The translations under genes and the position numbers were made by a program. From Candidatus Sulfomarinibacteraceae bacterium (lineage in GTDB: Bacteria; Acidobacteriota; Thermoanaerobaculia; Thermoanaerobaculales; Sulfomarinibacteraceae): a stretch of DNA of 64,000 bases. The notes under the pieces were generated by a model. It saw only the letters and a list, made by a program, of their open reading frames with translations, made no database searches and had not been told where the DNA came from. The stretch lies in the NCBI GenBank assembly GCA_963714895.1, contig CAVQQC010000016.1:106133-170132 (forward strand), in the 5' to 3' direction. Positions 10,824 to 64,000 of the stretch are shown piece after piece. Each line of letters begins with the position of its first letter. The first letter of the stretch is position 1.

Positions 10824-13800
10824 GTGAAGACTACGGCGACCATCTGCCTGGTAATGATCGCGTGCATCCTGTTCACCGGTGAGCCCGCGGTCGCGGCAAC
10901 CACCGTGGCCACCGGTCGCGACCACACGCTCGCGGTGACGGTTGGCGGCGAGGTCTGGGCCTGGGGCGGCAACGCCCACAGCCAACTCGGCAGCGGACCC
11001 CCGTCGATGCCGTCCGGGCCGAACCGAGTGAATGGCCTCTCCGGCATCGCCGCGGTCGCGGCGGGCGATCACTTCAGCGTTGCCCTCGGTGCAGACGGCT
11101 CCGTCTGGACATGGGGGGCGAACGCTTCCGGCCAACTGGGCGACGGCACGACCATCGACCAGGCGCTGCCGACACCTGTCAACGGAATTCCGGGCGTCAT
11201 TGCGGTATCGGCTACTGCGCGTCACGTTCTGGTCCTCGCTGAAGACGGAACCGTCTGGACCTGGGGAGACGGCAACCCGGTTCCTCTCCGGGTCGCCGGT
11301 CTGCCTCCGATCCGGCGCATTTTTGCTGTGCCGACGGGCTCCCTCGCGCTGACGGCTGAAGGCTCTGTGTGGTCGTGGAGCGAAGACGAAACCTCCCCCG
11401 CTCCGATCGTCGGGCTTGAGTCGGTCTCGGATCTCGCGACCGTGCCAGGTGGCGAACTTGTCGCCGTCAGCCAAGGGGTCGTCATGACCGGTTTCCCGTC
11501 TGAGGACGCCGACCAGCCAGAGGCCACAGAACTCAAGCTCTCCGTCGCCGTGCGATCGGTGGTGATCGTCGGCCACCTGGCAATAGCCCTCGCGGCCGAC
11601 GGCACCGTCTGGACATGGTCGAGAGAATCGACCGTGGAGACGACCTCTTCGAGATCTCCTCAGGCCGCCCCCGATCTCAAGAACATCGTTGCCGTCGCCG
11701 GAGGTCCGAAAGGGGCCCTGGCCCTCGAGCGCGGTGGCGCCCTGTGGGCATGGAGCGTCGACGCGTCGGCGATCGAGAAGGTTCCCATCCCGGACATCAT
11801 GTGGCAGGTTGATGCACCCGAGTTCCGCCCTCCCGAGGGTGGATACCCATGGCCACGGTACGTATTTGCCGGGTCGAACACCCCTGGCGCCGAGATCCAC
11901 ATCACCCGCGACGGAAGCATCCCCACCCTCGAAGACCCGATTCTGAATCCGGACGATGCCGTGCGTATCGAGCGCCCAACCGCGATCTCGGCCCGCGCGT
12001 GGGCGGATCATCTGGATCCGAGTGTGGTCACAGTGGCAAAGTACCGCATCGAACCGATCCGGTCGGACGACGGACACGTGGTGCCTTCCAACCAGACCCG
12101 AAGGCGGGACGGCTCTGCCAAGGCCGGTGACGACGTGATCTTCACCGAGGACTTCGAAACGGGCGAGCTTTCACGTTGGTCGAGTTTTCAACCGCCACCT
12201 ACGATCGCTCTCGGCGCGCCGATCTTGACACCCAACGGCGGTGTCTTCGCCGTCGCGCAAGAGGTCTCGGTGACCTGTCCGATTCCGGGCGCTGTCGTTC
12301 GCTACTCGCTCACCGGTCTGCCCACAGAAACCGATCCCGTGGTTGCCTGTGGGTCCACCGTTTCCGTTGCACGGTCGACGACGTTCCGTGCCAGGGCGTG
12401 GGCGGTCGGGTTCCTGCCAAGCGCAACGACCGAGGCGACCTACCTCTTCCAGTTCGGTGCCGCTGAAATCCCGACGTTCGACCCACCGGGGGGCTCCTAC
12501 GGATCCGCGCAGAACGTCACCATTGCTACCACGACGCCTGGAGCCAGCATCCGTTACACCCTCGACGGGACGCAACCGAATGCGACATCGTCCATCTACG
12601 CTGCGCCGATCGAAATCACAACGACGGGAGTTCTCACAGCCCGTGCCTTCCGCCACGATCACGCTCCAAGCGGCACTGCACAGGCCACTTATTTCATCGG
12701 AGACGCCACCGGCCGGCCGGTCCTCGGCCCGGGTGGCGGAGTCTATCCGTCAGGGCTGTTGGTGACCGTCTCCAACACGACGGCCGGCGCGACCATCCGT
12801 TACACCACAGACGGCACCGACCCGCAAATCGGCGATACGGTCATCGCCGATGGCGGCACGATTTCCGTCACCCGATCGCTGCGAATCGCAGCGCGCGCCT
12901 GGGCCGATGGAATGGACCCGAGCCCGGTGACTATCGCCGACTACGAAATCGTCGGTGGGGTTTCCGCCGGCGCCGTTCACAGTATGGCGCTGCGATACGA
13001 CGGAACGGTGTGGGCGTGGGGCGAGAATCAATCTGGAGAGATCGGCACCGGCGACGACACGGTCAACGAATACCGGTTACCGCAGCTGGTGGTCAACCTC
13101 ACCGACATCATCGCCGTCGAAGCCGGATCCAAACACTCGATGGCGCTGCGCGCGGACGGTACCGTCTGGGCGTGGGGTTGGGGCTTCAAGAATCGAATCG
13201 GGGACGGGGCCCACGCGGACCGATTCGCACCGGTCCAGGTCATCACCGAAGGCGGAGTACTGGAAAACATCATCGCCCTGTCCGGAGGCTATGGGCATTC
13301 GCTCGCCATCGCCGCGGACGGCACGGTGTGGGCGTGGGGCGACAATTACCGAGGCCAGCTCGGAATCGGCACCGGCGACAGCACCAAAAGCAAAGCCATC
13401 CAGGTTCCCGGTCTGACCGGAATCACAGCGGTTGCCGCCGGCGGCGAGCACTCACTCGTACTCAAGACTGATGGTGAGGCCACAGGTTCCTTGTGGGCTT
13501 TCGGCGAGAATGCAAACGGTGAGGTCGGTGATGGAACCACCACCGAACGACGCACACCGGTGAAAGTCCTCGACGGCGTGCGGTCGATCTGCGCTGGAGG
13601 CTCCCACTCGATGGTGGTGATGGCCGACGGCAGCGTGCTCGGCACCGGCCTCAACGATCGCGGACAACTCGGCAACGGCACCACCGAGGGCCCGGTGCTG
13701 ACGTTCCAACCCGTGTTCGACGGCGCCGAGGGCATCGTCGGCTGTTCGGCGAGCGGCGTCCACACCCTGGCGCTGACGTCCGGCCGACGGATTCTCGGGA

Positions 13801-47929: not shown

Positions 47930-50900
47930 CTAACCGGCTCTCTCCAGGGTGTCACGGACCTCACGAGCGGCCTTCACGACGTCGGCATCCGAGTCGTCGA
48001 GCGCGCCGTCGAGCACCTCGCGCAGCGGCTTCTCGTCCTCGAACAGGATCAGCGTCGTGACCGCGTTGCGACGGACCAACGGGTCGATGTTCTGACACAG
48101 ACGGCGCACCCTCTCGAAGGCGTCGTCCTCTGAGATCTTGCCGAGGCAGATCAACTCGGTCAAGACAGAGGACGCCGCCTCCACTCCGCGCCACTCCTCG
48201 CCTTCCAGGGCAGCCAGCAGGACCTTAGCGCCGCGGTCTTTGTCGCCGTAGATCAAGGTCCTCGCCGCCAGGTGCCGCACCGTCTCCGACTGGTCGAAAA
48301 GGGCGCGCTCGATCTGGGGATCCGCTGCAGCGCCGATGCCGATCAGAACTCCCAGCAAATCCTCCATCCGCTTCGGGTGGAGCCCCTTGGAGGCTCGTTG
48401 CAGCACCTGCGGAATCAGCCTCGCCTCTCCCAGTCTGGAGACGCAGTTGACCGCATTGGCGTAGCGGTTTCGGAAGTTCACGTCGGCGCCGACGCCCGGA
48501 TCGAGCGGTGGGTTGCGAAGGTTTTCGGCGTTGAGGGCCACCTCGACGAGATCGGAAAAAACCTCCTCGCCGCAGTCACCCGACCCTGCCGAAGAACCGG
48601 CCTGATAGGCGATCACCGCACCCTGGTTGACGCGCATCGCGCGCCCCTGAACGGTCACGCCGAGCTCGCCATAGAGGCGGCTGAACTTCACATCACCACG
48701 GGGCGAGGTCAGACTCCACAGACCCACCAGAACCAGGATCACCGCCGCCGAGACCACCGCCACCTTGAGGCCGAGGTTCCGGGAGAGGCCGGCGGCGATC
48801 TCCTTGACCGGCGCCACCTTGATCTGGCGCGCCCTTCGTTTGGCCTGTTCGCGGGTCTTCTCCTGCTCCTCGGTCCGGCTCTCGTCGCGAAACCTGACGA
48901 GCCGCTCGAGCTCCTGTTCGACCCGTTCCGGAGCGAGCCAGCCGAACCCACGCCGCCCCAGGTCTTCCAGCAGGTTCGCGAGCTGGTGATCCGACCACGT
49001 CGGGCGCCCACCCTCGGCGGAATCGCTCTCACGCAGCCTCAAGAAGACCTGCAGGAAGGGGCGAACCCGGTCGTCCCAGCTGGCGCTGTCGACGAGTTCC
49101 GGCTCCCAGTCGAGAAACCACAGACGGGCGCTGCCGTCGGCCCCGACAGACACCGCCGTGCCGCCGTCGCGATCGACCACCAGATCGGCCACCGCTCCCG
49201 AGTGACCCTTGACCACCCGGACCGCGCCTCCGGTGCGGGCATCCCACAAACGAACGGTGGCGTCCTTGCCCGCAGAAAGCAGGTACCGCGCATCGGGTGT
49301 GAAGGCGACCGCCAGCACCGCATCCTCGTGACCGGTCAGGGTGCGCCACATGCGACCGCTCTCGAGGTCCCACAACCTCACCGAGCCGTCGTCGCCGGCC
49401 GACGCCGCGAGTCGGCAGTCGGGGCTGACGGCGACCGCGTGGACCACGCCCTCGTGACCCGCGAGGCGGCGCAGCTCGACCCGTCGCCGCAGGCTCCACA
49501 CCGTGACCAGGTTGTCCCACCCGCCGCCCACCAGATACCTTCCGTCCGCGCTCACCGCGAGACTCGACACGGCGTCGTCGCACCCGCCCAGGGTCTCGGC
49601 CCGGGCGGTCTCGTCCAGCCGCCAGATGCGGACAGTCTTGTCGTCTCCGGCGGCGATCACCGACTGGTCTCCCGGGGCAAAGACCACCGACCGCACTGCC
49701 CCCCCGCCACTGCTGAAGGTGAAGCACCGCTCGCCGTCGGCGGCGCGCCACACCCCGATCGAACCGTCGCGTGCCGCAGTCGCCACCAGTTCGCCGTCGC
49801 CACTCACGACGAGTGCCGTCAGCCCCTTTTCGCCGACCGCGACGGAAAAGACCTCGTCGCCGCTGCGAGGGTCGAGACAGGTCAACGAGCCATCGCCGCC
49901 GCCGGCCAGAATCACCGAACCGTCGGGCGCCAGACCGCACGCCGTCAGGGGGCCGCGCCCGCCGCTGATTCTGCGCAGCTCGACGACGGCGCGGGACTCG
50001 GATTTCGGGAAGTGTGCCAGGACGCGGTTCCACAACTCGAGGGACTCCTGGTGGAGCTCGTAGCCCGGGACCGCCCGCGCCTCGCGCAACGGACCCACCG
50101 CCTCGGCCACCGCGCCCGATTGCAGGAGTTCGCGCGCTCTCCCCAGGTGTTCCTGGAACTGGAGCTCGCGTTGGGCGAGCTCGCCGGAGGCGGCAGATTC
50201 GGCGAGAACCAGTGGCAGGGGCGAGGCTGCCGGCTCACCCAGCGGCACCAGGTTGACGTGCGAGCCGAAGGCAGCGATCAGGGCCGAACCGTCGGCGGTC
50301 GCCGCCAGATCGTGGATCGGATTCGCCAGGCGAACGACCCGCTGGGACTCTCCCCGATCCAGCGACCACAAACGGATGGTGCCGTCCTCACCGCCGGCAG
50401 CGATCGACTCACCCACTGCGAGCACCCCCGTCGCTGCTCCCTTGTGGCCGCGCAGGAATCGGATGTTGCGGCCGGTCGCCGTGTCCCACACCCCGATGAG
50501 ACCGTCCTGTCCGGCGGTCAGGGCCACACGACCTTCTGCGGCGAACGCGACGCTTCGGAGGGGCCCCCGATGTCCCTCGAGCACGTGCACCGAGCGTCCC
50601 TCGACGAAATTCCACAGTCTGGCCGTACCGTCAGCACTCCCGGTGACGATAACGGGCTCGTTCGGGTGCCACGCCAGGGCGCTGAGAAAGGCCCGATGCC
50701 CTTGCAGCGTGCGCTCACACTCTCCGCTCTGGACATTCCACAATCGGAGCGCCCGGTCGGATCCACCGCTCGCGATCGTGCCTCCATCGGCTGAGAAATC
50801 GACGCAGGTCGCCACCCCGGGGTGGGGACGAAAGCTCCGCAACCGCCGCGCCGTGTCGAGGCTGAAGATCGTCAGCGGGCCGTTTTCCAGGCACACCACG

Positions 50901-53122
50901 AGGGCGCCGCCGGCCACCGCCATCGACCGCCCCTGCCGCGCCGGTCCGCCGAGGTCGATCCGGAGCTCGGGACGGTCGCCGCCCCGTCCCCAGGCGAAAG
51001 CCTCCGCCCCGGCCGTCCTCACCACCACCCGGCCGTCGTCCGCCACCCGCAGGCTCTGGACCGGCGCCGCGTGGTTCATCACCCGATCGACACGGTGGCC
51101 CGGCAGGTGGGCCGCCACCGCATCGGCCAGATCTGCGGGGAGATCGCGATCGAGCGACCGCGCGGCCGCCAACGCCTCGTCGGCCTTCGCCCGGTCGCCC
51201 GCGAGCGCGCAGCACTCGGCAAAAGCGACCATCGCCGGAAGGTCGGACGGACTGTCCTCCACCACGCTGCGCAGGAGCTCGCCGGTGTGGCTTGTATCCA
51301 TCGCCGCACCGGAAGCGCGGGCGGCTGCAAGCATCGCGAAGGCGCGGGCGCGACGCACCGCCAGGCTCTCTCCCTCGCCTTCGGACAGGGCGTCGAGAAC
51401 CTCCAGAGCCCCCACCGGGTTGTCAAGCAATAGCCGGAGCCGCGCCCGCAGCAGACCGGCACGGGCCCTGTTGGCTCCCGAACTCTCAGCCTCGCTCAAC
51501 CGCCGCTCGAATTCGGCATCGGTGAGGCCCTCACGCCGCCACTCGAGCAGACCTGAGTTGAAGGTGGCCTCGAGGTGGGTCGGATCGACTTCGAGGGCGT
51601 CGCGAAAGCTCGCCGCCGCCCGGTCCGCGAGGCCCAGGGTCACGAACGAGGCGCCGCGGTTTGACAGCGAGTCGGCGAGCAGCTGCGTGCGTTTGGGCTC
51701 AGGCCGCGGGTACATCCTGCCGGCGACCTGCTGGTACGCCGTCACCAGTGTCGTTCGAATCTCGGCGAATGACTGCGGCCGGTCGTCGGCTTCCTTGGCG
51801 AGACACGACTGCATCAGCGCCGCCAGGTGGTCGTCGATGGCGGGGTCGAGCGTTCGCGGGTCGGGAGGGGTGTCTCGCAGGTGCATCCGCATCAGGCTGC
51901 CGAGGTGGGCCTCGCGGGTCTGCGACGCCGCGTCCGACTTCATGACGAACGGCCTCCGTCCGCAGAAGACCTCGTAGAGCAGGCAACCGTACGCGTAGAC
52001 ATCGGTGGCGACGGTGCCGCGCTGGGACTGCCGCCACAGCTCGGGCGCCATGTAGGGTGGTGTTCCCACCAACCCGCCGGCCGCGGTCACCGTCTGCCAC
52101 GACCCCGTGGCCACGCTGTCCTGCGGGCGGGCCGTGCTCGGCAGCGTCGGATCCAGCTGATCCCGAACATCCTCGCCAGTCTCGATTTCCACGACGTTGT
52201 GGGACCGCACCAGCCCGAAGTCGGTGACCCGCGCAATGCCGTCGGTCGTCAACAGGACGTTGGCCGGTTTGACGTCGCGGTGGACCAGACCGCGGTGTTC
52301 GACACCGTCGTCGTCGGTCCAGGGAAAGGTGTTGGTGTAGTCGAGCCCGCTCGCGATCTGGATCGCGATGTCGAGTCTCTCTTCGAGCCCCGGTTTGTCC
52401 TCGCGCTTCAACCACTCGGTGAGATCGCCGCCGTCCACGTACTCGATGAAGAGCCTCGGCATCCCGCCGATCTCCTGCAGGTAGTACGCGCAGCAGATGT
52501 TGGGGTGGACGCCGAGGGCGACCCACGACTCCGCCTCCCGTTGAAAACGCGCGCGGCCGTCGACCGTGGCGAGCATCGACGGCAGCGGCGTCTTGATCGC
52601 GACCATCCGCCACAGTTCGCGGTCGAAGGCGATCGCCACCACCGCCATCCCGCCGCGGGCCGTCGCGTGGACCTCGTAGCGGCCGTCGATCACCGATCCC
52701 GCCGTCCACCCGCGGCGGGTGTCGGGGATCGCCATGGTGGCAAAACTCTTCGGCGCCTGCGACTCCACCGTCGCCCGGCGGGTCACGTCGGCAAGCGCCG
52801 GTTGTGCCGCGGCCGTGACCGGCGAGTGCTCGATGAGTTCGTGAGTGACCGTGTGCGCGGCGTCGAGCCCGGTCAGGGCCTGCTGCCGCCAGCTTTTTGC
52901 CGAGTCGGACGCGGGGTCCAGCTCGAGACAGCGATCGAAGGCGGCGATCGCCTCGTCGAGCCGACCCAGCCGAAACAGACAGTAGCCGCGGTTCATCCAG
53001 TTCTTGGCGTGGTCGGGGAATTTCTCGCACCACGCTTCGAGCAACGGCAGCGCATCGCCCCACCGTTCCGCCTTGAGGGCAGCCACGATGTTGCGTTTGA
53101 GGTCTTCAATCTGCTGATTCAC
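47930..53122 (-). CDS. Large TPR - Ser/Thr kinase - TPR - WD40 x2 - TM - HEAT-like protein
   Basis: ARGGMAVV, IKT, HRDVKPAN, DFGL, GTPPYMAPE; many GH...WD repeats; TM VAVVSAAVILVLVGLW; HEAT-like C-terminus. Confidence 0.9.
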   Translation of the reverse strand: MNQQIEDLKRNIVAALKAERWGDALPLLEAWCEKFPDHAKNWMNRGYCLFRLGRLDEAIAAFDRCLELDPASDSAKSWRQQALTGLDAAHTVTHELIEHSPVTAAAQPALADVTRRATVESQAPKSFATMAIPDTRRGWTAGSVIDGRYEVHATARGGMAVVAIAFDRELWRMVAIKTPLPSMLATVDGRARFQREAESWVALGVHPNICCAYYLQEIGGMPRLFIEYVDGGDLTEWLKREDKPGLEERLDIAIQIASGLDYTNTFPWTDDDGVEHRGLVHRDVKPANVLLTTDGIARVTDFGLVRSHNVVEIETGEDVRDQLDPTLPSTARPQDSVATGSWQTVTAAGGLVGTPPYMAPELWRQSQRGTVATDVYAYGCLLYEVFCGRRPFVMKSDAASQTREAHLGSLMRMHLRDTPPDPRTLDPAIDDHLAALMQSCLAKEADDRPQSFAEIRTTLVTAYQQVAGRMYPRPEPKRTQLLADSLSNRGASFVTLGLADRAAASFRDALEVDPTHLEATFNSGLLEWRREGLTDAEFERRLSEAESSGANRARAGLLRARLRLLLDNPVGALEVLDALSEGEGESLAVRRARAFAMLAAARASGAAMDTSHTGELLRSVVEDSPSDLPAMVAFAECCALAGDRAKADEALAAARSLDRDLPADLADAVAAHLPGHRVDRVMNHAAPVQSLRVADDGRVVVRTAGAEAFAWGRGGDRPELRIDLGGPARQGRSMAVAGGALVVCLENGPLTIFSLDTARRLRSFRPHPGVATCVDFSADGGTIASGGSDRALRLWNVQSGECERTLQGHRAFLSALAWHPNEPVIVTGSADGTARLWNFVEGRSVHVLEGHRGPLRSVAFAAEGRVALTAGQDGLIGVWDTATGRNIRFLRGHKGAATGVLAVGESIAAGGEDGTIRLWSLDRGESQRVVRLANPIHDLAATADGSALIAAFGSHVNLVPLGEPAASPLPLVLAESAASGELAQRELQFQEHLGRARELLQSGAVAEAVGPLREARAVPGYELHQESLELWNRVLAHFPKSESRAVVELRRISGGRGPLTACGLAPDGSVILAGGGDGSLTCLDPRSGDEVFSVAVGEKGLTALVVSGDGELVATAARDGSIGVWRAADGERCFTFSSGGGAVRSVVFAPGDQSVIAAGDDKTVRIWRLDETARAETLGGCDDAVSSLAVSADGRYLVGGGWDNLVTVWSLRRRVELRRLAGHEGVVHAVAVSPDCRLAASAGDDGSVRLWDLESGRMWRTLTGHEDAVLAVAFTPDARYLLSAGKDATVRLWDARTGGAVRVVKGHSGAVADLVVDRDGGTAVSVGADGSARLWFLDWEPELVDSASWDDRVRPFLQVFLRLRESDSAEGGRPTWSDHQLANLLEDLGRRGFGWLAPERVEQELERLVRFRDESRTEEQEKTREQAKRRARQIKVAPVKEIAAGLSRNLGLKVAVVSAAVILVLVGLWSLTSPRGDVKFSRLYGELGVTVQGRAMRVNQGAVIAYQAGSSAGSGDCGEEVFSDLVEVALNAENLRNPPLDPGVGADVNFRNRYANAVNCVSRLGEARLIPQVLQRASKGLHPKRMEDLLGVLIGIGAAADPQIERALFDQSETVRHLAARTLIYGDKDRGAKVLLAALEGEEWRGVEAASSVLTELICLGKISEDDAFERVRRLCQNIDPLVRRNAVTTLILFEDEKPLREVLDGALDDSDADVVKAAREVRDTLERAG

Positions 53123-56581: not shown

Positions 56582-58912
56582 ATGAATAGAGTTCCGCTCG
56601 ACAGGATCGCGAAACCCGAAATTCTGTTCAAGGTCCTCATCGCGGCGGCTGCCGGCGCGGTTGCGGTGGGGGCGTTACTCGAGCCCACCCTCACGGCGGC
56701 AGTCAAGGCTGCTGTGAGCATTATTCTGTTTCCGTTGGTAGCGGCCGCTCTCTATGCGACCTCTGGGCCGCAGTGGCTACTCAATCTGGTTGATCGATCG
56801 ACCGATCCTCTGCAGCGCCTTATCGAGACGCTTGAAGGACACAGATTGACGATTGCGATCGTCCTTGCGTCCGCATTGGGTTTGTATTTCGAGCTCTTTC
56901 TGATCCGCTGGCACGCAAGTAGCTTTCAACTCTTCGCCTACTACAAGAACGTCACGCTGATCGCGTGCTTTCTGGGACTCGGCATCGGTTTTGCCCTGGG
57001 TTCCCGTGGTCGCATCTGGCTCGCGCTGGCCTTCCCAGGCATCGCTTTGCAGATTGTCCTGTTGAGGCTCCTGCGAGATACGCCGATTGCAGAGCTGCTG
57101 AACAACCCGGTGCCGGGAAACGTCGCCCTGGGTCTCACCAAAAACACCCTTGTCGGAGGGGTGCCGGAGGCATTGCCCGGCATTCTCATCAGCTATGGAT
57201 TCCTGGCATTGATCTTCGTTGCCTCGGCCCTGAGCCTTATTCCCATGGGTCAGATCACTGCTCGGCTCATGAAGCGGATGCCCGAGTTGCGTTCCTACGG
57301 CTTGAACCTCGTTGGCAGCATTCTCGGCGTCCTCGTCTTCACGTTGCTGGCCCATTTCTGGACGCCTCCTACCGTGTGGTTGGTTTTGGGCGTCACAGCT
57401 GCGCTTCCGTTTCTGAGGGTCGAGAGGCGGATGGTCATTGCCGCCGCGACCGCGACCACAACTGCGGCCGCCCTTCTTGGGCTCCTGAGTTTGTCCTCTG
57501 AGGTCCGTGAGATCTACTCCCCCTATCAGATCTTGCTTGTCAACGAGCGGCCCGGAGAACCTCCGGTCATAATGGTGAATCACACCTATTTCCAGCGAGC
57601 CCTCGATCTGAGTTTGAAATCGGTGATGATGGATCCCCAACTGGAGCGGCGAGCCCGTTACTACGAGCTCGCCTACCTCATCAGGCCAAACCCAGAGTCG
57701 GTGCTGGTCCTCGGCAGCGGTCTCGGGAACGACGTTGCCGCGGCATTGAGGCGTGGGAGCACTCGGGTTGATGCTGTGGAGATCGATCCGGCGATCTACC
57801 GATTGGGCCGTGAAATTCATCCGGAAAACCCCTATCTGGACAAACGAGTAACGACGACCGTAACCGACGCCCGGCGGTTTATTCGGCGGAGCGATGAGCG
57901 ATTCGACGTCATCGTATATGGACTCCTCGATTCTCACAGCCTCCTCTCGGCCAACACCAGCGTCCGGCTTGACTCCTATGTCTACACGGTAGAGGCGTTC
58001 AGGGAGGCGCGCTCTCTCCTGACCGACGATGGGATTTTGATCCTCTCATTCTCGCTGATGTCTCAGGAACAGGGAGAAAAGCTCTACCGCATGATGAGCA
58101 TGGCCTTCGACGGGGCGTCTCCGCGAATTCTCCTGTCGGGGTACGACCGGGGTTTTGCCTTCCTGGTGGGTCAGGGTGTGGAGGAAATGAACCTCTCGGC
58201 TATCAGCGGCTTTCTCGACGTCACCGAGAACTTCGCCAACCCCGAATCGACGGTAGATCCTGCGACCGACGACTGGCCCTTCTTCTATATGCCCCGCAGG
58301 ACGGTGCCGCTCGGCTACGGCGCCCTGATCGCGGTCTTGCTGGCGGTGTCGTTCACTGTCTCGGCACGCGTGCTGCAGTCCCCCGGCCGCCTCGTGCCTT
58401 CGTTGCCGTGCTTCTTTCTCGGCGCCGGGTTCATGCTCGTCGAGACTCGGACCATCACCGAGCTCGGACTGCTATTCGGCAGCACCTGGCAGGTCGTTAG
58501 CGTGACAATCGTCGCCGTGCTGGTCATGGCCTTCTCCGCCAACTTCATCATCCTGAAAATGGGGAGTCCACCAGTCGGGATAACTTACGGGCTCCTCATT
58601 CTCTCGCTGGTTGTAGGATTCGCGGCGGGCGCAGGGGTCTTTCGTCTGTCCGGCAATGTGGAACTCCTCGTACGTACGGCGATCATCACACTGCCACTCT
58701 TCTTTTCCGGATTCGCCTTCTCGAGCGAGCTTCGGCGAAGCGGAGATGTGGCGGGAGCGATGTCGTCGAATCTTCTAGGCGCTGTCTTGGGGGGGTTCCT
58801 GGAGTACTCCTCGATGCGGTTCGGTTTTCAGGCCTTGTATCTGATCGGCGGCATCATCTATGTGCTGGCGTTTTGGACATCTGTTCGCCTGACCCGATCC
58901 GCAAAGGCCTAA
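56582..58912 (+). CDS. Polytopic membrane protein with spermidine-synthase-like SAM-binding domain
   Basis: Many TM helices around VLVLGSGLGNDVAAAL..VDAVEIDP..DARRFI..FDVIVYGLLDSH. Confidence 0.85.
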   Translation: MNRVPLDRIAKPEILFKVLIAAAAGAVAVGALLEPTLTAAVKAAVSIILFPLVAAALYATSGPQWLLNLVDRSTDPLQRLIETLEGHRLTIAIVLASALGLYFELFLIRWHASSFQLFAYYKNVTLIACFLGLGIGFALGSRGRIWLALAFPGIALQIVLLRLLRDTPIAELLNNPVPGNVALGLTKNTLVGGVPEALPGILISYGFLALIFVASALSLIPMGQITARLMKRMPELRSYGLNLVGSILGVLVFTLLAHFWTPPTVWLVLGVTAALPFLRVERRMVIAAATATTTAAALLGLLSLSSEVREIYSPYQILLVNERPGEPPVIMVNHTYFQRALDLSLKSVMMDPQLERRARYYELAYLIRPNPESVLVLGSGLGNDVAAALRRGSTRVDAVEIDPAIYRLGREIHPENPYLDKRVTTTVTDARRFIRRSDERFDVIVYGLLDSHSLLSANTSVRLDSYVYTVEAFREARSLLTDDGILILSFSLMSQEQGEKLYRMMSMAFDGASPRILLSGYDRGFAFLVGQGVEEMNLSAISGFLDVTENFANPESTVDPATDDWPFFYMPRRTVPLGYGALIAVLLAVSFTVSARVLQSPGRLVPSLPCFFLGAGFMLVETRTITELGLLFGSTWQVVSVTIVAVLVMAFSANFIILKMGSPPVGITYGLLILSLVVGFAAGAGVFRLSGNVELLVRTAIITLPLFFSGFAFSSELRRSGDVAGAMSSNLLGAVLGGFLEYSSMRFGFQALYLIGGIIYVLAFWTSVRLTRSAKA

Positions 58913-59778
58913 TAGGTGCCGGGTCCGCAGTTCCGTAGTTGTTACGAATCAACGATCGTCACCAATCAACAGCCTATCCAACTTCTCATACCGTTGCTGA
59001 AGATGTTCGTCGTCGAGCCTTTGTTTGACTCCTTCACGCTGAATGTAGGTTACCGTGTCCGCGCTTTTGTGGAGTGCCGACGCTAAGTTCTTGGTGCTCT
59101 GTGCCCACCGTTCCCGTCCCAAGGTAACGATTAACCTTCGGGCCTCGACCAGTGGTTGCAGGCGGGAACGACTCGCGAGGTCTTCGACCTTGAGCTGAAG
59201 GATATCGGCGCAATGTCGGATGAATTGATCCGCTGAGAGTTCATCTCGCTCCGGCCCGGTGCTCCTTCCGAGGACGTCGATATAGGGCCCCTCGTCATCC
59301 GGAGCCAAGTCTCGATCCGGCCGAAACCAGATTTCAGGCAGGCCTGTTTCTCGACCCGCTTCCGCCCCGAGATCCCGGCACCCCTGCCGGATCGCCGACA
59401 GGTAGGCCTTCCGCGCATCACGCTGCTTCTGCCCAAAGCTCAGCAGGCAGTCGTCAACGTCGATGATGGGGTTCGAGATCCCCTTGACGATTTCTCGGTG
59501 GCCGCTGAAGACATGGTCGACCGGGCGAGCGACCAATCCGCCTGCTACCGGGTTGAGATGAATGTAGAGAATGACCCGATCGAGGTATCCCTGCTCATTG
59601 ATCGGTTTCGCGTGGTAACGACTCTGCCAAAGCGCCCCGGTGCGTCTTCGCCCTCGGTTGAATCGCTGGCTGAATCTACCTTGAAGATACTGGAATCCCC
59701 GCGAGATCGGGATCGCTCTGCTCCGTATGGCGAGGTGGTAGTGGTTCGACATGTAAACCCAAACAGAACACCCCACTC

Positions 59779-60237
59779 GTGGGTGATGGCGGACGAGTCC
59801 ACATCTACTACCGATACCACGGCCATGCGGGCGGCGAGTTCGAAGTTGCCAAGGCCTGGAAGGCGCGGGGACAACAGGTCAACGTCGTCCTTCCGAACGG
59901 CTCCCGCCTCTTGGTCCCGGAGTGGGTGACGCAGCCCAGCGCCGCCGCCTTTGAGGTGACAGAGCAGGCTGCAATCAGCGTCGGAGCCTTGCTGGCGATT
60001 TGTCAACTCATCGAAAGCCGCGGGTGCCGGTCGGCGGCGCGTCACGGGTCTACTCTTTCGGCGAATGAAACCAACGCCGGAAAGGGGGACGCGGATGGAG
60101 CAGCTTCGACTCCTCGTGATCGAGGACGAGGTGACCGTTCGAGTCGAGCTCGACGAGAGCCTACGCGACGAGCTGGTCACCCTGATGGTCGCGGCCATCG
60201 TGGCCGTCCATCAAGCAGAAACGGAGGCCGACAATGA
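59779..60237 (+). CDS. Accessory ORF1 of the recombinase element; lacks a strong start in the integrated state
   Basis: IYYRYHGHAGGEFEV..LPNGSRLLVPEWVT. The frame is open back to the left junction, and its stop overlaps the recombinase ATG. Confidence 0.55.
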   Translation: MGDGGRVHIYYRYHGHAGGEFEVAKAWKARGQQVNVVLPNGSRLLVPEWVTQPSAAAFEVTEQAAISVGALLAICQLIESRGCRSAARHGSTLSANETNAGKGDADGAASTPRDRGRGDRSSRARREPTRRAGHPDGRGHRGRPSSRNGGRQ

Positions 60238-60241
60238 GTGA
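60095..60241 (+). CDS. 48-aa accessory ORF2 (MEQLRLLV...ETEADNE)
   Basis: Own translation; purine-rich RBS AAAGGGGG; overlaps the recombinase start by 8 nt. Confidence 0.55.
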   Translation: MEQLRLLVIEDEVTVRVELDESLRDELVTLMVAAIVAVHQAETEADNE

Positions 60242-62366
60242 TTGGGACCATCCCAAGGTTCGGTCGGAGCATGTCAGCCGTAAGGCTGTCGTGTATCTCA
60301 GGCAGTCATCGATGAAACAGGTCCGGGAAAACCTCGAGAGCCAGCGCCTTCAGTACGCCCTGGCAGACCGCGCGCGGAAAGCCGGATTTGCCGAGGTCGA
60401 GGTCATCGACCGCGACCTCGGCGTCAGTGCGGCGGTCGGTTCCGATCGCGAGGGATTTGAGCGCCTGGTTTCGGAGGTTGCGCTGGGCCAGGTCGGTGCC
60501 GTGGTTTCTCGAGAGGTCTCCCGGCTTTCGAGGACCGACAAGGACTGGTGCCATTTACTGGAGGTCTGTCAGGTCTTCGACACCCTGATCATGGACGAGG
60601 ACCAGGTCTACGACCTCAGCGAGATCGACGACCAGCTCGTGCTCGGCATCAAGGGCACGATGAGTGTCGTGGAGCTGAAGGTGCTGCGAATGCGAATGCT
60701 CCGAGGTCGCGAGGAGAAGGCCCGGCGCGGGGAGCTCAGAACCCGCCTAGCGCCGGGCTTCGCCTACGACTCGACCGGCAAGATGGTGCTGCATCCTGAT
60801 CAAAGAGTTTTTGACGCGATCTCGCGAATCTTCCGAAAGTTCCGCGAGCTGTGGAGCGCGCGCCAGGTCTTCATGTGGTTTCATGACAACGAAATCATGG
60901 TCCCGGTCAACCGCTGGGGAGGAGGACCTGCCGAGCTGGAATGGAAGCTACCGACGCTCAGCTTCATCCAGGACGTCCTGCGCAATCCGGTCTACGCCGG
61001 GGCATACGTTCATGGTCGGCGACCGGTCGAAACCGTGTTCGAGGACGGCAAGCTCGCCAAACGAGCGGGGAGCCCGAGAGAGCCAGAGGACTGTCACGTC
61101 TTCCTGCGGAATCATCACGAAGGTTATATTGACTGGCAGGAGTATGAGCTCAATCGCAAGCGGCTGCGACGAAACTGTATGAGATTCGAAAGCGATCCGG
61201 CGACCGCGGCGGTTCGTGGTGGTCACGGCCTGTTGGGCGGTGTCCTGCGCTGCGGGCATTGCGGTCGCAAGCTCCAGGTGCGCTACTGGGGGAAGAAGGG
61301 GACCACACCTCGCTACTTCTGCAAGGGCGACTACGATAGCGGCGGCGCCTACTGTCTGTCCTTCGGTGGTCACAAGGTTGATCAGCGCTTCTCCGAGGAG
61401 GTCTTAAGGGTGCTCTCCCCGCTGGGGATCGAGGCCGGCCTGCGGGCGACACAGGAGCTCCGATCACAGCATGAGGATCGAGTGCAGGCGCTCAAGCTCG
61501 AGCTCGAACAGCTCGACTACGAGGTTCGGCGGGCGTTCGAGCAGTACGACGAAGTCGACCCGAGGAACCGGTTGGTCGCGGCCGAGCTCGAACGCCGGTG
61601 GAATGCCAAGCTCGAAGAGCAGAATCGGGTTCGGCAAAACCTGATTGCGGTGGATGCGGATCGGCAGCCGGTCACTTCGGAGGTCGAGGCGAAGCTTCGC
61701 AATCTCGGTGAGAATTTCACGCTGGTCTGGAATGATCCCGGTTGCCCGGTCGAACTGAAGAAGAAGGTCGTACATACGCTCATCGAGGAGATCACCGTCA
61801 CGCTCGACAACGATGTCGCAACGCTTCGATTCGTCGTTTACTGGAAAGGCGGCTGCCACACCGAGTTGGCACTGGAAAAGCCTCGGCCGGCTACCGCCAC
61901 GAAAACCTGTTCAGACGCGCTGGAAATCATTTGCAAGATGGCCTCAAACTACGGCGACGGACAGATCGCCGCCGTCCTCAACAAGTCAGGACTCCGCACC
62001 GGCAAAGGCAAACGCTGGACTCAGACCCGCGTCGCGACGGCCCGCAGGAACCACTTGGTTACCGGCCAACGATCGATGATTCCAGACTCCGATATCCTCA
62101 CCCTCAGTCATGCGGCAAAGCACTGCGACGTCAGCCAGCACACGATCCAGCAGCTCGTGAAATGTGGTCTCCTGGAAAACAACCAGGTCGTCCCGCACGC
62201 GCCGTGGGAAATCAGGAGAGAGGATCTCGAATCCGAACCCATCCGAATAGCCCTGGTACACCTCAAAAGGACCGGCAAACTGTCCCCGATGGGGGGTCAT
62301 TTACGATCCCAAATAGCACTTCCTCTTGAAAACAAAGAAGATGATAACGAGGGGTATTATGAGTGA
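60234..62366 (+). CDS. Large serine recombinase (resolvase, recombinase, Zn-ribbon, coiled coil, C-terminal HTH)
   Basis: VYLRQSS, EVSRLSR, LRNPVYAG, LLGGVLRCGHCG..YFC, LTLSHAAKHCDVS. Confidence 0.95.
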   Translation: MSDWDHPKVRSEHVSRKAVVYLRQSSMKQVRENLESQRLQYALADRARKAGFAEVEVIDRDLGVSAAVGSDREGFERLVSEVALGQVGAVVSREVSRLSRTDKDWCHLLEVCQVFDTLIMDEDQVYDLSEIDDQLVLGIKGTMSVVELKVLRMRMLRGREEKARRGELRTRLAPGFAYDSTGKMVLHPDQRVFDAISRIFRKFRELWSARQVFMWFHDNEIMVPVNRWGGGPAELEWKLPTLSFIQDVLRNPVYAGAYVHGRRPVETVFEDGKLAKRAGSPREPEDCHVFLRNHHEGYIDWQEYELNRKRLRRNCMRFESDPATAAVRGGHGLLGGVLRCGHCGRKLQVRYWGKKGTTPRYFCKGDYDSGGAYCLSFGGHKVDQRFSEEVLRVLSPLGIEAGLRATQELRSQHEDRVQALKLELEQLDYEVRRAFEQYDEVDPRNRLVAAELERRWNAKLEEQNRVRQNLIAVDADRQPVTSEVEAKLRNLGENFTLVWNDPGCPVELKKKVVHTLIEEITVTLDNDVATLRFVVYWKGGCHTELALEKPRPATATKTCSDALEIICKMASNYGDGQIAAVLNKSGLRTGKGKRWTQTRVATARRNHLVTGQRSMIPDSDILTLSHAAKHCDVSQHTIQQLVKCGLLENNQVVPHAPWEIRREDLESEPIRIALVHLKRTGKLSPMGGHLRSQIALPLENKEDDNEGYYE

Positions 62367-62571
62367 GTCGTCATCACGCACCATGCCAGCACACTCCATC
62401 CATCACGTGTCTTCGTTTCTCGCACGGTGTCGATGAACTCGACCGCTTCCTCAGGATTCGCGAATATCGGTTCGCCGCTCGCAACCCGGTTGTACACATG
62501 GTACAAACCACCTTCGATCTCGACCCTCGCCCTTCGAACCATAGATTTTTCCCTGTTCGGGAAAGCTATCA

Positions 62572-62817
62572 CAACTTTCTAAGTTTCTAAAGCCTGGCAC
62601 CGATAATGGCACCGATAAGAAACTCCACCATTATCTCCACAGGCAGGATAGAGCATCACGACCAGCAGGATGATGACGATGGTGGTTGCGACGATGATGG
62701 TGACGATGACGACGGTGGTGGGCGTGACCACCATCATGATGATGGTGATGTTGATCAGCAGCGAAGTGAACGGCCGGCGCCGGCCTCGGTCAACTTTCTA
62801 AGTTTCTAAAGCCTGGC
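62572..62817 (+). repeat. 27-bp exact direct repeat, each copy followed by a short tandem duplication
   Basis: CAACTTTCTAAGTTTCTAAAGCCTGGC at 62572-62598 and 62791-62817, followed by (TGGCACCGATAA)x2 and (TGGCTCTGATT)x2. Confidence 0.92.
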
Positions 62818-62842
62818 TCTGATTTGGCTCTGATTCGCCAAG

Positions 62843-63136
62843 GTGGGGAATTTTGCATCGTACTGCCGTTTGGTGAAGTCGGATCGGTTCAGCAACGGTA
62901 AGCGAAAGGGCTCAGGCAACTCCAAAAACGGCAACCCCAATTTGTCTTGGGCTTTCTCGGAAGCTGCCCATTTCGCGGTGCGTTACTACGAGCCTGCCAA
63001 AAAGTTCGTGCAACGGAAACGATCCAAGACCAACGGCATCGTGGCGATCAGAGCTTTGGCTCACAAGCTGGCGAGAGCGTCGTACTACGTCATGAAAGAT
63101 CAAGTGGACTTCGATCCCGATAAAACGTTTTCATAA
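62843..63136 (+). pseudogene. IS110 transposase C-terminal fragment
   Basis: FASYCRLV..SNG..KNGNPNLSWAFSEAA..ALAHKLARASYY; the DEDD N-terminal domain is missing. Confidence 0.85.
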
Positions 63137-63139
63137 TGT

Positions 63140-63480
63140 TGCGGACCGGGGCGGAAGCGAGGATAGGTGCCTGGAAAAACCACCGAGCCTGAGTCGATCC
63201 GCCCCGGTTTCCGCACCCCTTGCTCGACCTGCGCGCCGACTGTGAGCCAAGAGGTGTTGGCGCCCTTCGGGGTAGCCCGTAGTCTGTCATTCCTCAACCG
63301 CGTGGACACAGCCGGCAGAGCTCGAGGACTTTCTGGGGCGCCGAATGGCGCCAGGGGCCGAGGACCTCGTACGGAGATCCTCATCGCCTTGATCCTGATG
63401 GGTGGCTGGTGCAGTCGACTGCTGACACCAACCCGATTGAACGTCCGGCCGCGTGGGGAGACCATAGGGTGACTTCTCAT
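63140..63480 (+). ncRNA. Candidate IS110 bridge/seek RNA
   Basis: Stem CCGGGGCGGA/TCCGCCCCGG encloses an internal loop whose two strands match both insertion flanks. The 3' boundary is uncertain. Confidence 0.6.
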
Positions 63481-64000
63481 CATGCCGCCACGGGAAAAGG
63501 CTGTGGAATCTGCGGAAAGCTGCCTCGCCTGCGGCGAGTCACCTTCCAGCAGCTCCCACAGCCACGACGACGACGGCGAGATGGGATCAAAAACTTGTTG
63601 ATGCAAACGTCAGGCGCACGCGGCACCCGTTTGGGAAAACTCTACCTACTTGACACGGGGCTTCTAATGGGTGGCACCTATTACGTTACAGCCACCCGGT
63701 GTCTTGAAGCGAAGTTTCGTAACTCTGTTTGAACGCGTCTGCATCAAAGTCCCGAAGCTTGAATTCTGGAATTCTCACTATAGCCCGAAGAAGTGCATGA
63801 GCAACCAGTTTTGTCTGGTTGAATTCGTCAGATTCACGAAAAATCTCGTATGGGATCTTTAGACGGAACTCAGCATCACGATCGCGTTTATGAAACTTCG
63901 TGGTCTCAGGATAATTGGTGTCCCCATCAGGGCGGAGAATCCCAATAAACGTCAGACTCGTTAAGGATTTTCCAAATCCGCTCGCCGAAAAATGTTCGTT

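Follow-up and report, generated by a model that had tools for sequence, protein, structure and literature searches.

The window analysed here is a 64,000-nt stretch of assembly GCA_963714895.1, a Candidatus Sulfomarinibacteraceae genome with a completeness of 85.6%. Near its right end, a remnant of a transposase gene is followed by a hairpin whose two loop strands match DNA on either side of the remnant. This raises the question of what kind of element left the remnant, and whether the hairpin belongs to an RNA that guided the element to its target. Our comparisons indicate that segment 62834-63673 is very probably the 3′ half of an IS110-family, IS1111-group IS that encodes a bridge/seekRNA aimed at RAYT-end/REP repeats. 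In the following, G numbers denote genomes of the genus (G000 is the source assembly and C25 one of its contigs), L numbers denote element loci, and X numbers denote metagenome or RNA runs.

Anatomy of the relic and its intact relatives

An ORF on the minus strand (62357-62572) holds the first 71 codons of a gene for a RAYT (REP-associated tyrosine transposase) and is interrupted on its left by a serine-recombinase unit. The 71-aa piece alone gave no Pfam match. Its identity to the N-terminus of an intact 344-aa RAYT on C25, judged by eye rather than computed, is about 80%; the intact protein matches PF01797 and scores 87.1 bits against NF047646 (cut-off 80). The C25 gene is flanked on both sides by inverted AACTTTCTAAGTTTCTAAAGCCTGGCACCGAT, the same motif as REP copy 1 of the window, and minus/plus motif pairs lie about 1.07-1.08 kb apart in at least six other genomes of the genus. 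Inverted doublets of the repeat without a gene were found at L126 and L129.

Two copies of the RAYT-end/REP motif are present on the plus strand of the window. Copy 1 (62572-62605; ..AACTTTCTAAGTTTCTAAAGCCTG|GCACCGAT) is an unoccupied site of the type used by the IS, and AGCCTGGCACC is located inside it at 62591-62601. Copy 2 (62791-62833) is a variant that reads ..CTAAAGCCTGGCTCTGATT up to 62824; the remaining 9 nt (62825-62833) are a tandem duplicate, TGGCTCTGA. Neither part is IS DNA. Short tandem duplications at the fusion to RAYT-end repeats were seen in three of four truncated relics.

The plus-strand ORF at 62834-63136 encodes 100 codons and a stop, corresponding to residues 239-338 of a 338-aa IS110-family transposase. 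Profile searches matched it to PF02371 (29.5 bits) and to positions 252-342 of NF033542, and tblastn gave 80.8% identity to residues 239-337 of P0001. Because only the C-terminal 100 residues are kept, the relic is a fragment of an IS110-family member. Downstream on the same strand lie the target-binding hairpin (63140-63216), a second loop (63237-63417), and the IS right end (63650-63673), which consists of a TTGACA box (63650-63655), GCTTCTA (63660-63666), ATGGG (63667-63671) and the core TG (63672-63673). The right target half, GCACCTATT, follows at 63674-63682; identical letters stand after the second relic, on C25, and after a relic in G004, and other copies carry GCACCGAT instead. In total, 840 bp remain of an element of about 1651 bp. 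What is missing is the left end together with the first 238 transposase codons and the DEDD/RuvC domain, and this copy, which also has no junction promoter, is dead.

The initial annotation had placed the left junction at 62815/62816. We found that IS-derived DNA begins at 62834: contigs of two metagenome runs from different studies match rightwards from this position and carry the ORF on leftwards past it (..IMYEVGDVHR|FAKVGNF). A contig of run X5 spans 62618-62824 and then diverges, and the 16-mer 62810-62825 is 1 nt off AAGCCTGGCACTGATT, an uninterrupted REP variant known in the genus. We also considered the 18 nt at 62816-62833 as internal IS sequence, and rejected this on their absence from intact copies. 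The relic is joined 9 nt downstream of the intact variant REP by a rearrangement of some kind.

The intact relatives match PF01548 (50.7 bits), PF02371 (61.6 bits) and NF033542 (177 bits, cut-off 140). Their left end is about 97 nt long and their 3′ non-coding region (NCR) measures 423-537 nt (six aligned copies plus L126 and L129). The intact layout comprises a 97-nt left end starting AGAATCCTC-TAGAAGGC, a 338-aa DEDD/Tnp_20 transposase, and a 537-nt 3′ non-coding region ending ..TTGACA..GCCTTCTA-ATGGG-TG. TAGAAGGC and GCCTTCTA form a subterminal inverted repeat of 8 bp (9 bp in the wider family), of which the relic keeps only the right half, reading GCTTCTA. TG stands at both junctions in intact relatives. 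The left ends start TG|AGAATCCTCTAGAAGG (AGAATCC) in all eight relatives that are intact or bear a left end (L028, L031, L032, L033 and L125-L129, with L125 and L127 being one locus).

Studies of IS1111 elements describe a signature of this group: a long 3′ NCR encoding an RNA in which the complement of the target top strand precedes the match to the bottom strand (PMC11187229, PMC11208160). The guide order in the relic and its family is the same, the 5′ strand being reverse-complementary to the right flank and the 3′ strand running in the same sense as the left flank. The IS1111 placement rests on this order, the layout and the subterminal repeats. The repeats of the group are given there as 7-17 bp (PMC11208160) and usually 11-13 bp (PMC11187229), so that 8-9 bp falls at the short end of the range and below the usual length. 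The initial annotation had proposed a new IS110 subfamily with a long 3′ ncRNA; since such an RNA is already the IS1111 hallmark in both papers, the element is not a new subfamily. The TTGACA at 63650, a 17-nt spacer and GAGAAT across the junction fit a candidate circle-junction promoter in the relic's subfamily. The corresponding spacing in L081 is 15 nt, so the pattern is not generalised.

Covariation of the target-binding hairpin with flanking DNA

The hairpin begins 4 nt past the transposase stop at 63136. CCGGGGCGGA (63146-63155) pairs with TCCGCCCCGG (63198-63207) in a perfect 10-bp stem, which extends to 63140-63155/63198-63216 with a 2-nt bulge. Its predicted fold has an energy of -42.7 kcal/mol (z = -4.42), and none of 200 shuffles was as good. 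Larger folds gave z = -1.98 (63130-63680) and z = -0.89 (63225-63420), neither informative alone. The hairpin is kept in 65 distinct sequences from many phyla, with compensatory changes at 12 of 12 predicted consensus pairs. A search of 62300-64000 against Rfam 15 returned no family at E <= 1, and a scan of 62560-63720 returned no promoter-like or terminator-like site. Among the RNA runs, at most 0.08 of sampled words matched. Run X15 yielded six short contigs of 90-95% likeness, with 85% continuing into unlike sequence; these contigs probably come from relatives, may represent DNA rather than RNA, and have no bearing on expression either way.

The 5′ guide ATAGGTGCC (63163-63171) is the reverse complement of the 9 nt GGCACCTAT (63673-63681). 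The 3′ strand AGCCTG (63186-63191) is identical to 62810-62815, part of the nearby RAYT-end repeat; it consists of the guide proper (63186-63189) and the core TG (63190-63191), and is followed by AG (63192-63193), identical to the two bases with which the IS left end opens. The strings, stem and loop-flank matches quoted in the initial annotation were thus all confirmed, with each string at its position.

We explored whether such matches hold across the family, as the annotation had suggested. About 50 related elements entered this analysis, with 46 loci on the right side and 32 on the left, and covariation was found on both. The 5′ strand matched the reverse-complemented right flank with a mean longest match of 5.76 for cognate against 4.10 for non-cognate pairs, and the 3′ strand matched the left flank with an identity of 6.66 against 4.62 of 10; 0 of 5000 permutations reached the observed value on either side, the permutations running over loci that include related, non-independent ones. 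For 19 loci with a right flank outside the majority ACCC class, the cognate mean match was 6.53 nt, against 3.55 for other classes. Matches of 9 nt between loop and flank occur at L076, L080, L082 and L089. The loop core equals the last two right-end bases in 46 of 48 loci, including six CG-core elements. In 37 of 39 loci, the left end starts with the same two bases that follow the loop core; several of these counts owe most of their size to a single class (AT/AT in 32 of 39 loci, AC/AC in 25 of 39). Family counts derive from an anchor-based loop parse of 86 sequences, which left out two without an ORF by pattern, ten unparsed and three without a stem of at least 6 bp. A hairpin is visible by eye in L030, L040, L048, L067, L085, L108 and L115, which were unparsed, and L066, L081 and L113 were removed by eye as mis-parsed.

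Sister elements within the genus carry the loop AAAGGG-TG / AGGTGC and are inserted in GCGAAGGGTG|GCACC. This repeat occurs as inverted pairs and in high copy number, with 106 copies in G019, 88 in G003, 74 in G006 and 4 in G000. The relic-type and sister loops differ exactly at the positions where their targets differ. The relic-type loop was found on six metagenome contigs, five of which have an intact 338-aa ORF and a left end. Full-length copies with the same loop, for which the initial annotation had called, therefore exist; their left end is AGAATCC and not the relic's 62816. Their left flanks read ..CTAAAGCCTG| (L126, L129), ..GCCAAGCCTG| (L125, L127) and ..CCGTACCTG| (L128, which adjoins a RAYT gene and has the second RAYT-end type as its flank). 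On the right, relic-type-loop copies are followed by GCACCGAT (L126, L129), GCACCTAT (L127), GCACCACT (L125) or GCACCGAA (L124). L126 and L129 occupy the predicted repeat (..CTAAAGCCTG|IS|GCACCGAT), and 25 nt identical to REP copy 2 form the actual left flank of L129. The proposal that the implied target AGCC-TG-GCACC.. is the RAYT-end/REP motif is borne out by these copies, which sit exactly there.

The predicted 14-mer target has no perfect copy across 25 genomes of the genus. With one mismatch allowed, six of nine matches in G000 are the RAYT-end AGCCTGGCACCGAT, and the reversed control gave 0. The 3′ guide reads GAGCCTG in the relic and AAGCCTG in intact copies. The loop-flank matches, the family covariation and the intact copies in predicted sites, together with the compensated stem pairs, identify the hairpin as the target-binding loop of a 3′ bridge/seekRNA, as first suggested for an IS110-family guide RNA.

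From the observed anatomy, the guide-flank covariation and the occupied and empty sites, a mechanism may be proposed, in which RNA expression, processing, transposase binding and strand-exchange chemistry are inferred from published ISEc11 and IS621 work. The 3′ region would encode the bridge/seekRNA of the element. In the first loop, the 5′ strand ATAGGTGC(C) would pair with GCACCTAT, the right target half, on the top strand, and the 3′ strand (G)AGCC-TG would pair on the bottom strand with the left target half and the TG core. The AG after the core matches the first two left-end bases, as IS621 handshake positions do, and the 3′ strand of the second loop carries right-end sequence of the IS, then the core and the first two right-flank bases. 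Jointly, the guides would direct insertion at ..AAGCC-TG|GCACC(G/T)AT, a motif that is the conserved end of REP-like repeats around RAYT genes and in inverted doublets.

Second loop and candidate donor guides

The second loop (63237-63417) is closed by CGACTGT (63237-63243) and GCAGTCG (63411-63417), and G006-type relatives show a compensatory change in this stem (GGCCGT/GCGGTC). Its 3′ strand reads ATGGG (63398-63402), core TG (63403-63404) and GC (63405-63406), which is the IS right end plus the first two right-flank bases; ATGGGTG thus occurs at 63398 and again at 63667-63673. The family keeps this pattern. An exact internal copy of the last 7 IS nt is present in 39 of 48 loci; eight of the other nine differ by one base (TG for CG or GG), and in L060 the copy was not recovered. 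In 36 of 39 loci, the 3′ strand runs from right-end sequence through the core into the first two bases of the flank. The suggestion that ATGGGTG is a donor-side guide is therefore supported.

The other proposed donor guide, GAGCCA (63244-63249), stands directly after the stem strand CGACTGT. It is part of a GTGAGCCA motif in 27 of 27 members parsed for the second loop, irrespective of their left end, and is structural. We found no convincing guide for the left-end start in the second loop, whether upstream of TTCTGGGG, in the hairpin GAGGACCTC..GGAGATCCTC, or after GAGCCA; the donor-loop model thus has a counterpart in the sequence for the right end alone. In the 5′ strand, the final 4-5 bases resemble the complement of the right flank (GGTG(T/A)/GCACC here, GGGGT/ACCCC in most others). 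It may be, though we think it rather unlikely, that the second loop of this IS1111 clade reads the right junction and not the donor circle as in IS621. If so, the left end would be recognised via protein contacts with the subterminal repeat, and retargeting such recombinases would take three flank-matched RNA segments, not two.

Alternative explanations, known systems and significance

The element could be read as 62816-63672/3 with both true ends (left end GCTCTGATTTGGCTC), that is, as a new IS110 subfamily with an internally deleted recombinase whose donor guides GAGCCA and ATGGGTG serve the ends GCTCTG../..ATGGGTG. In favour of this, AGCCTG at 62810-62815 does form the left part of a real target motif, as the flank of L129 shows. 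However, the two-run contigs run through 62834 with an open reading frame, and 62810-62825 is nearly an uninterrupted REP variant. The eight relatives start AGAATCCTCTAGAAGG, the AG after the loop core predicts an end in AG and not GC (a rule kept in nearly all loci), and 62816-62833 holds no subterminal repeat partner for GCTTCTA. GAGCCA is invariant, and the position of the RNA is the known IS1111 arrangement in the cited papers. We consider this reading very improbable. That the hairpin is a mere terminator or REP-like palindrome with coincidental flank matches is scarcely credible. It is GC-rich, follows the stop codon by 4 nt, and lies in a region full of GGCACC-containing repeats. However, no T-run follows it and the scan returned no terminator-like site; moreover, its loop strands covary with flanks across phyla, and loop-predicted sites are occupied in independent contigs.

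A truncated target-guiding IS relic is thus the preferred reading, and there remains the matter of its present activity. The relic RNA might still be made and work in trans, as a solo guide module, with an intact copy located either in the 14% of the genome missing from the assembly or in co-resident cells. Both loops are intact, near-identical intact copies exist in sediment metagenomes, and ISs often remain unassembled, as they may here. In PMC11187229, the ISEc11 NCR brought back circle formation and transposition when it was provided in trans on a plasmid of its own. However, G000 has neither a PF01548 domain nor a tblastn match to the N-terminal 238 residues, and the lack of a DEDD recombinase in an assembly of this completeness leaves action in trans unsupported. 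The scan returned no promoter-like site, and the family promoter arises, according to the same paper, at a circle junction that the relic is unable to form. The 3′ guide has drifted by one base, and the second relic has lost the first loop entirely. We regard action in trans as unlikely. The relic fusions could mean that IS sequence resembling the GGCACC motif is acted on by the RAYT machinery or by the IS recombinase.

Siddiquee et al. (2024, PMC11187229) studied ISEc11, ISKpn4 and ISXne4, IS1111-group elements with a 3′ seekRNA, which our elements resemble in layout and guides. Their DEDD transposase, of about 339 aa, is preceded by a short left end and followed by a long NCR, and the ends carry subterminal inverted repeats. 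They have an RNA hairpin with a 5′ strand complementing the target top strand and a 3′ strand matching it, make no target duplication, and show natural retargeting between relatives about 72-74% identical. Our family differs in its RAYT-end/REP target, its 8-9 bp repeat, its terminal extensions of 9 and 5 nt around the TG core (as placed here), and its longer NCR with a large second loop.

IS621, as described by Durrant et al. (2024, PMC11208160) and Hiraizumi et al. (2024, PMC11208158), likewise has an RNA-guided DEDD recombinase, two internal loops, a 2-nt core common to target and donor, and two-base handshake guides beside the core. However, its RNA is encoded 5′ of the gene and has the guides in reversed order, and no counterpart of its left-end guide was located in our second loop. 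The IS621 protein is distant (E = 8e-7 over residues 28-141). IS621 reportedly also inserts into REP sequences (Choi et al. 2003, as cited in PMC12288879). ISPpu9 and ISPpu10 of Pseudomonas putida are IS110-family elements that use a fixed REP position and prefer inverted REP pairs (PMC12288879). Their genome contains scattered, separate RNA-only and gene-fragment modules, whereas the relics here are truncations and not mobile modules. ISPpu9 also differs in belonging to the IS110 group, with an upstream bridge RNA and a downstream Ssr9 RNA that is dispensable for transposition (PMC12288879). The best named plasmid matches to the intact transposase are annotated 'IS110-like element ISGsu4 family transposase' (46% identity over 99% length), an annotation label on a distant relative only.

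Our results add a further case of a site-specific IS in REP/RAYT repeats, already known for IS621 and ISPpu9/10. Both target and guide are readable from sequence alone in an uncharacterised clade of compact (338-aa) RNA-guided recombinases. Natural retargeting within one genus, from the high-copy REP doublet (..AAGGGTG|GCACC) to the RAYT-end repeat (..AAGCCTG|GCACC), could be traced to identified guide positions. Guide design for this group can make use of the family-wide evidence that, in IS1111-type RNAs, the two bases on the far side of each loop's core follow the other partner in recombination.

The relic and its first hairpin

All strings quoted in the initial annotation were present in the window at their coordinates. 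The transposase remnant is a 97-codon open reading frame (ORF) on the forward strand (62843-63136), whose product corresponds to the Tnp_20 portion at the C-terminus of an IS110-family transposase (PF02371, 29.5 bits) and matched positions 252-342 of NF033542 in a profile search. This copy has neither a left end nor a catalytic domain, and residues 1-238 are absent. No match to PF01548 was found in the assembly of the same genome (4.02 Mb, 31 contigs, 85.6% complete), and a tblastn search of it with an intact transposase returned no match other than the window remnant.

A hairpin (63140-63216) starts four bases past the transposase stop. Its predicted energy is −42.7 kcal/mol (z = −4.42), a stability that none of 200 shuffles equalled, and it contains a small inner hairpin, TGG-AAAAA-CCA, flanked by an internal loop on each side. 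The 5′ loop strand, ATAGGTGCC (63163-63171, +), is the reverse complement of GGCACCTAT at 63673-63681; the 3′ loop strand is AGCCTG (63186-63191, +).

Related genomes carry intact elements that share about 73% identity with the window copy; G006, for example, has three. They have a 338-aa ORF with PF01548 and PF02371, a left end reading AGAATCCTC-TAGAAGGC.. after a TG and lying about 97 nt ahead of the ATG, a 3′ non-coding region (NCR) of 423-524 nt, and a right end of the form ..TTGACAC..GCCTTCTA-ATGGG-TG. Reported marks of the IS1111 group are subterminal inverted repeats and a long 3′ NCR combined with a short left end (PMC11187229, PMC11208160), and these relatives carry such repeats as TAGAAGGC and GCCTTCTA. 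The long 3′ RNA had been taken to indicate a new IS110 subfamily. However, the 3′ NCR is where the two 2024 papers locate the IS1111-group guide RNA (PMC11187229, PMC11208160); thus, this layout is already published and does not mark a new subfamily.

It had also been suggested that the relic RNA could act in trans. The ISEc11 NCR is reported to function in trans if expressed from a plasmid (PMC11187229), so such action would be possible in principle, but nothing in the relic supports it. A scan of 62560-63720 found no promoter-like or terminator-like sites; for ISEc11, the promoter formed at the circle junction is the sole one seen in the account given in PMC11187229. In this subfamily, the TTGACA of the right end (63650-63673) lies 17 nt before a GAGAAT formed across the circle junction (..GGGTG/AGAAT..). 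By analogy, this pair could possibly be a junction promoter like that of ISEc11, with a spacing that differs in at least one distant relative (L081). To the right, the relic adjoins a fragment of the Imm44 immunity family (63686-64000, −) at the edge of the window.

Guide strands and flanks across the relatives

We examined 80 loci (of 574 relatives) whose transposases are 46-56% identical, except two that are identical to the query. Nearly all of them have the same hairpin directly 3′ of the stop codon, and compensatory changes occur in 12 of 12 predicted consensus pairs (65 distinct sequences). In the loci whose loops could be parsed, covariation between loop and flank was found on both sides of the element. 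The 5′ strand matched the reverse complement of its own right flank over a mean longest match of 5.76 nt, against 4.10 nt for the flanks of others (46 loci), and the 3′ strand with the core matched its own left flank at 6.66 of 10 positions, against 4.62 for others (32 loci). Each value was reached in 0 of 5000 permutations, figures that cannot be read as true probabilities, given the relatedness of the loci and the weight of a single class in several counts. The informative loci are those outside the majority ACCC flank class: in these 19, the cognate match had a mean of 6.53 nt versus 3.55 nt, and L076, L080, L082 and L089 each have a 9-nt cognate match. The minority classes all agree in direction. 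In 46 of 48 loci, six CG-core elements among them, the IS ends in the same two bases as the core dinucleotide of the loop; in 34 of 36, so does the left flank.

Sister elements in the genus have ..AGGTGC as 5′ strand and AAAGGG-TG as 3′ strand and are inserted in GCGAAGGGTG/GCACC; the window loop has AGCC-TG at the positions where sister loops have AGGG-TG. The sister target is a high-copy repeat in inverted pairs about 67 bp apart, and its copy number differs strongly among genomes of the genus: GCGAAGGGTGGCACC, with at most one mismatch, was counted 106 times in G019, 88 in G003, 74 in G006 and 60 in G007, against 0-4 in others, with 4 in the genome of the window.

The second, donor-side loop is closed by CGACTGT (63237-63243, +) with GCAGTCG (63411-63417, +), and this stem shows compensatory changes in the sister subfamily (GGCCGT/GCGGTC). 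Two donor guides had been tentatively named. ATGGGTG (63398) holds as one, and the last seven IS bases are repeated internally across the family: the conserved stretch CCTTGATCCTG-ATGGG-TG-NN-TGGTGC, the 3′ strand of the second loop, copies them exactly in 39 of 48 loci. Eight of the remaining nine are one base off, with TG where the IS ends in CG or GG, and in L060 the internal copy was not recovered. With TG in place of CG, the six CG-core elements could form a U-G wobble with the bottom strand. The NN equals the first two right-flank bases in 36 of 39 loci (AC 25, GC 6, CC 3, TG 1, CG 1), which parallels the handshake guides described for IS621 (PMC11208158). The terminal bases of the 5′ strand of this second loop resemble the complement of the right flank. 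The other candidate, GAGCCA (63244), is invariant whatever the left end. It lies within a G(T/A)(G/A)AGCC motif present in all 27 family members whose second loop our script could parse, and a similar GAGCC/GAACC sits ahead of the 5′ guide in the first loop; it is structural, not programmable. No segment complementary to the left-end start was found in the second loop.

Target sites and the left breakpoint

A contig scan found the window-type loop in six metagenome contigs; in five of these, the 338-aa ORF is intact and the left end is AGAATCCTCTAGAAGG. Two of them, L126 and L129, are 94% identical to the relic over 62834-63681, and in both the IS has split one of the two arms of an inverted repeat doublet. 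The left and right flanks are ..AACTTTCTAAGGTTCTAAAGCCTG and GCACCGATGCC in L129, ..AACTTTCTGAGATTCTAAAGCCTG and GCACCGATAGC in L126, ..GCCAAGCCTG and GCACCACT in L125, and ..GCCAAGCCTG and GCACCTAT in L127; L125 and L127 represent one and the same site. In L128 the left flank is ..AACTACGTAACTCCGTACCTG, a second RAYT-end type that precedes an opposite-strand RAYT gene by about 30 nt, and the right flank lies beyond the contig end. L124 offers a right flank only, GCACCGAA. Because these junctions lie in RAYT-end/REP repeats, the main earlier proposal, a loop programmed to such repeats with a TG core, is upheld. None of 25 genomes of the genus contains a perfect match to the predicted 14-mer AGCCTGGCACCTAT. 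With one mismatch allowed, six of its nine matches in the genome of the window are the RAYT end AGCCTGGCACCGAT, and a reversed-pattern control gave none. Unoccupied CCTGGCACCTATT occurs in this genome at C11:93701 and at C25:8405 (−), 8449 and 11313.

The left junction had been placed at 62815/62816, but the intact copies begin with AGAATCCTCTAGAAGG and do not contain the 18 nt at 62816-62833. The dinucleotide after the core of the first loop equals the first two left-end bases in 37 of 39 loci (AT/AT 32, AG/AG 5); the window loop has AG, which predicts a left end AG.. as in the intact copies. IS-derived DNA starts at 62834. Contigs from two sequencing runs of different studies, X1 (856 nt) and X5 (739 nt), match from 62834 rightwards, and to its left they translate to ..IMYEVGDVHR, in frame with FAKVGNF, so that they supply the missing part of the ORF (compare MYEVGDISRFKKVGNF). 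One X5 contig spans 62618-62824 and then diverges. The sequence at 62810-62825 (AAGCCTGGCTCTGATT) is one base off an uninterrupted REP variant found elsewhere in the genus, and 62825-62833 is a 9-nt tandem copy of 62814-62822. Taken together, these sequences show an intact variant repeat fused, by way of a short duplication, to the transposase gene at its middle.

Other truncated relics all keep the right junction. The sole other piece in the genome of the window, C25:13633-13925, corresponds to 63390-63682 at 99% identity and is fused at 63390 to ..AAGCCTGGCACCGATACCGATA. One in G008 starts from 63167, within the 5′ guide, fused to inverted ..GATCAGTGCC, and one in G004 (C337) starts from about 62958. 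Small genes on the opposite strand neighbour the C25 relic as well. Two solo right-end fragments were seen: 50 nt at L126:330-379 (−), 96% identical to 63625-63674 and about 45 nt downstream of the intact copy, and L032 (G010) at about 2270-2340 (−), reading ..TTGACACGCGCCTTCTAATGG/GCACCC without GTG.

RAYT loci around the relic and known systems

Upstream of the relic lies a 71-codon N-terminal piece of a RAYT gene (62357-62572, −). The RAYT-end motif AACTTTCTAAGTTTCTAAAGCCTGGCACCGAT is at 62572-62605, with a variant at 62791-62824. An intact 344-aa RAYT on contig C25 of the same genome (NF047646, 'REP-associated tyrosine transposase', 87.1 bits, cut-off 80) is bracketed by inverted copies of AACTTTCTAAGTTTCTAAAGCCTGGCACCGAT.

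A unit of about 2.6 kb (59762-62366; also L123, G013:C140, 1-2650), whose sole gene encodes a 710-aa large serine recombinase (PF00239, PF07508, PF13408), lies inside RAYT coding sequence, at the codons for the HUH motif. In the window, the RAYT N-terminus on its right ends ..AWCVM/TTHS-stop, and the C-terminal part on its left starts WVYMSNHYHL. The G013 recombinase (86% amino acid identity) is followed by a different RAYT N-terminus, ..AWCLM/TTHS-stop, with identical junction letters. From these junctions, the unit looks like one that targets RAYT genes. The two RAYT halves end in different types of repeat and are unequally similar to the C25 RAYT (N-terminal piece about 80%, read by eye and not computed; C-terminal piece 42%), and they may come from two loci. 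A second RAYT-end repeat type, AATAGGTGCCGGGTCCGCAGTTCCGTAGTTG (58911-58941), just beyond the 3′ end of the left piece, contains a 9-mer identical to the 5′ guide of the first loop; read from the opposite strand, it gives ..GGACCCG/GCACCTATT, close to a target but with CG as its core. TGGCACC is common to the RAYT ends of several paralogues (62590-62620 and 62810-62835; C25:11203-11240 and 13608-13632; L123 at about 2900-2990), often with short tandem duplications just after it (TGGCACCGATAA, TGGCTCTGATT, AAGCCTGGCACCGATG and ACCGAT, each twice; ACGTGGCACCCATC two to three times). Elsewhere, 47930-53122 (−) encodes a protein of 1730 aa that combines a protein-kinase domain with numerous WD40 repeats.

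ISPpu9/10 are reported as IS110-family elements that insert in REPs (PMC12288879), whose reference list also cites REP insertion by IS621, and natural retargeting among IS1111-group relatives is described for ISEc11 and ISXne4 (PMC11187229). The matches listed in a full-text literature search on RAYT/REPIN with IS110/IS1111 guide RNAs did not name RAYT. The explicit link to RAYT ends may therefore be new, although RAYTs and REPs are two aspects of a single system. In substance the earlier finding is right and has good support, but the window element is a broken and unremarkable representative of a kind already known.
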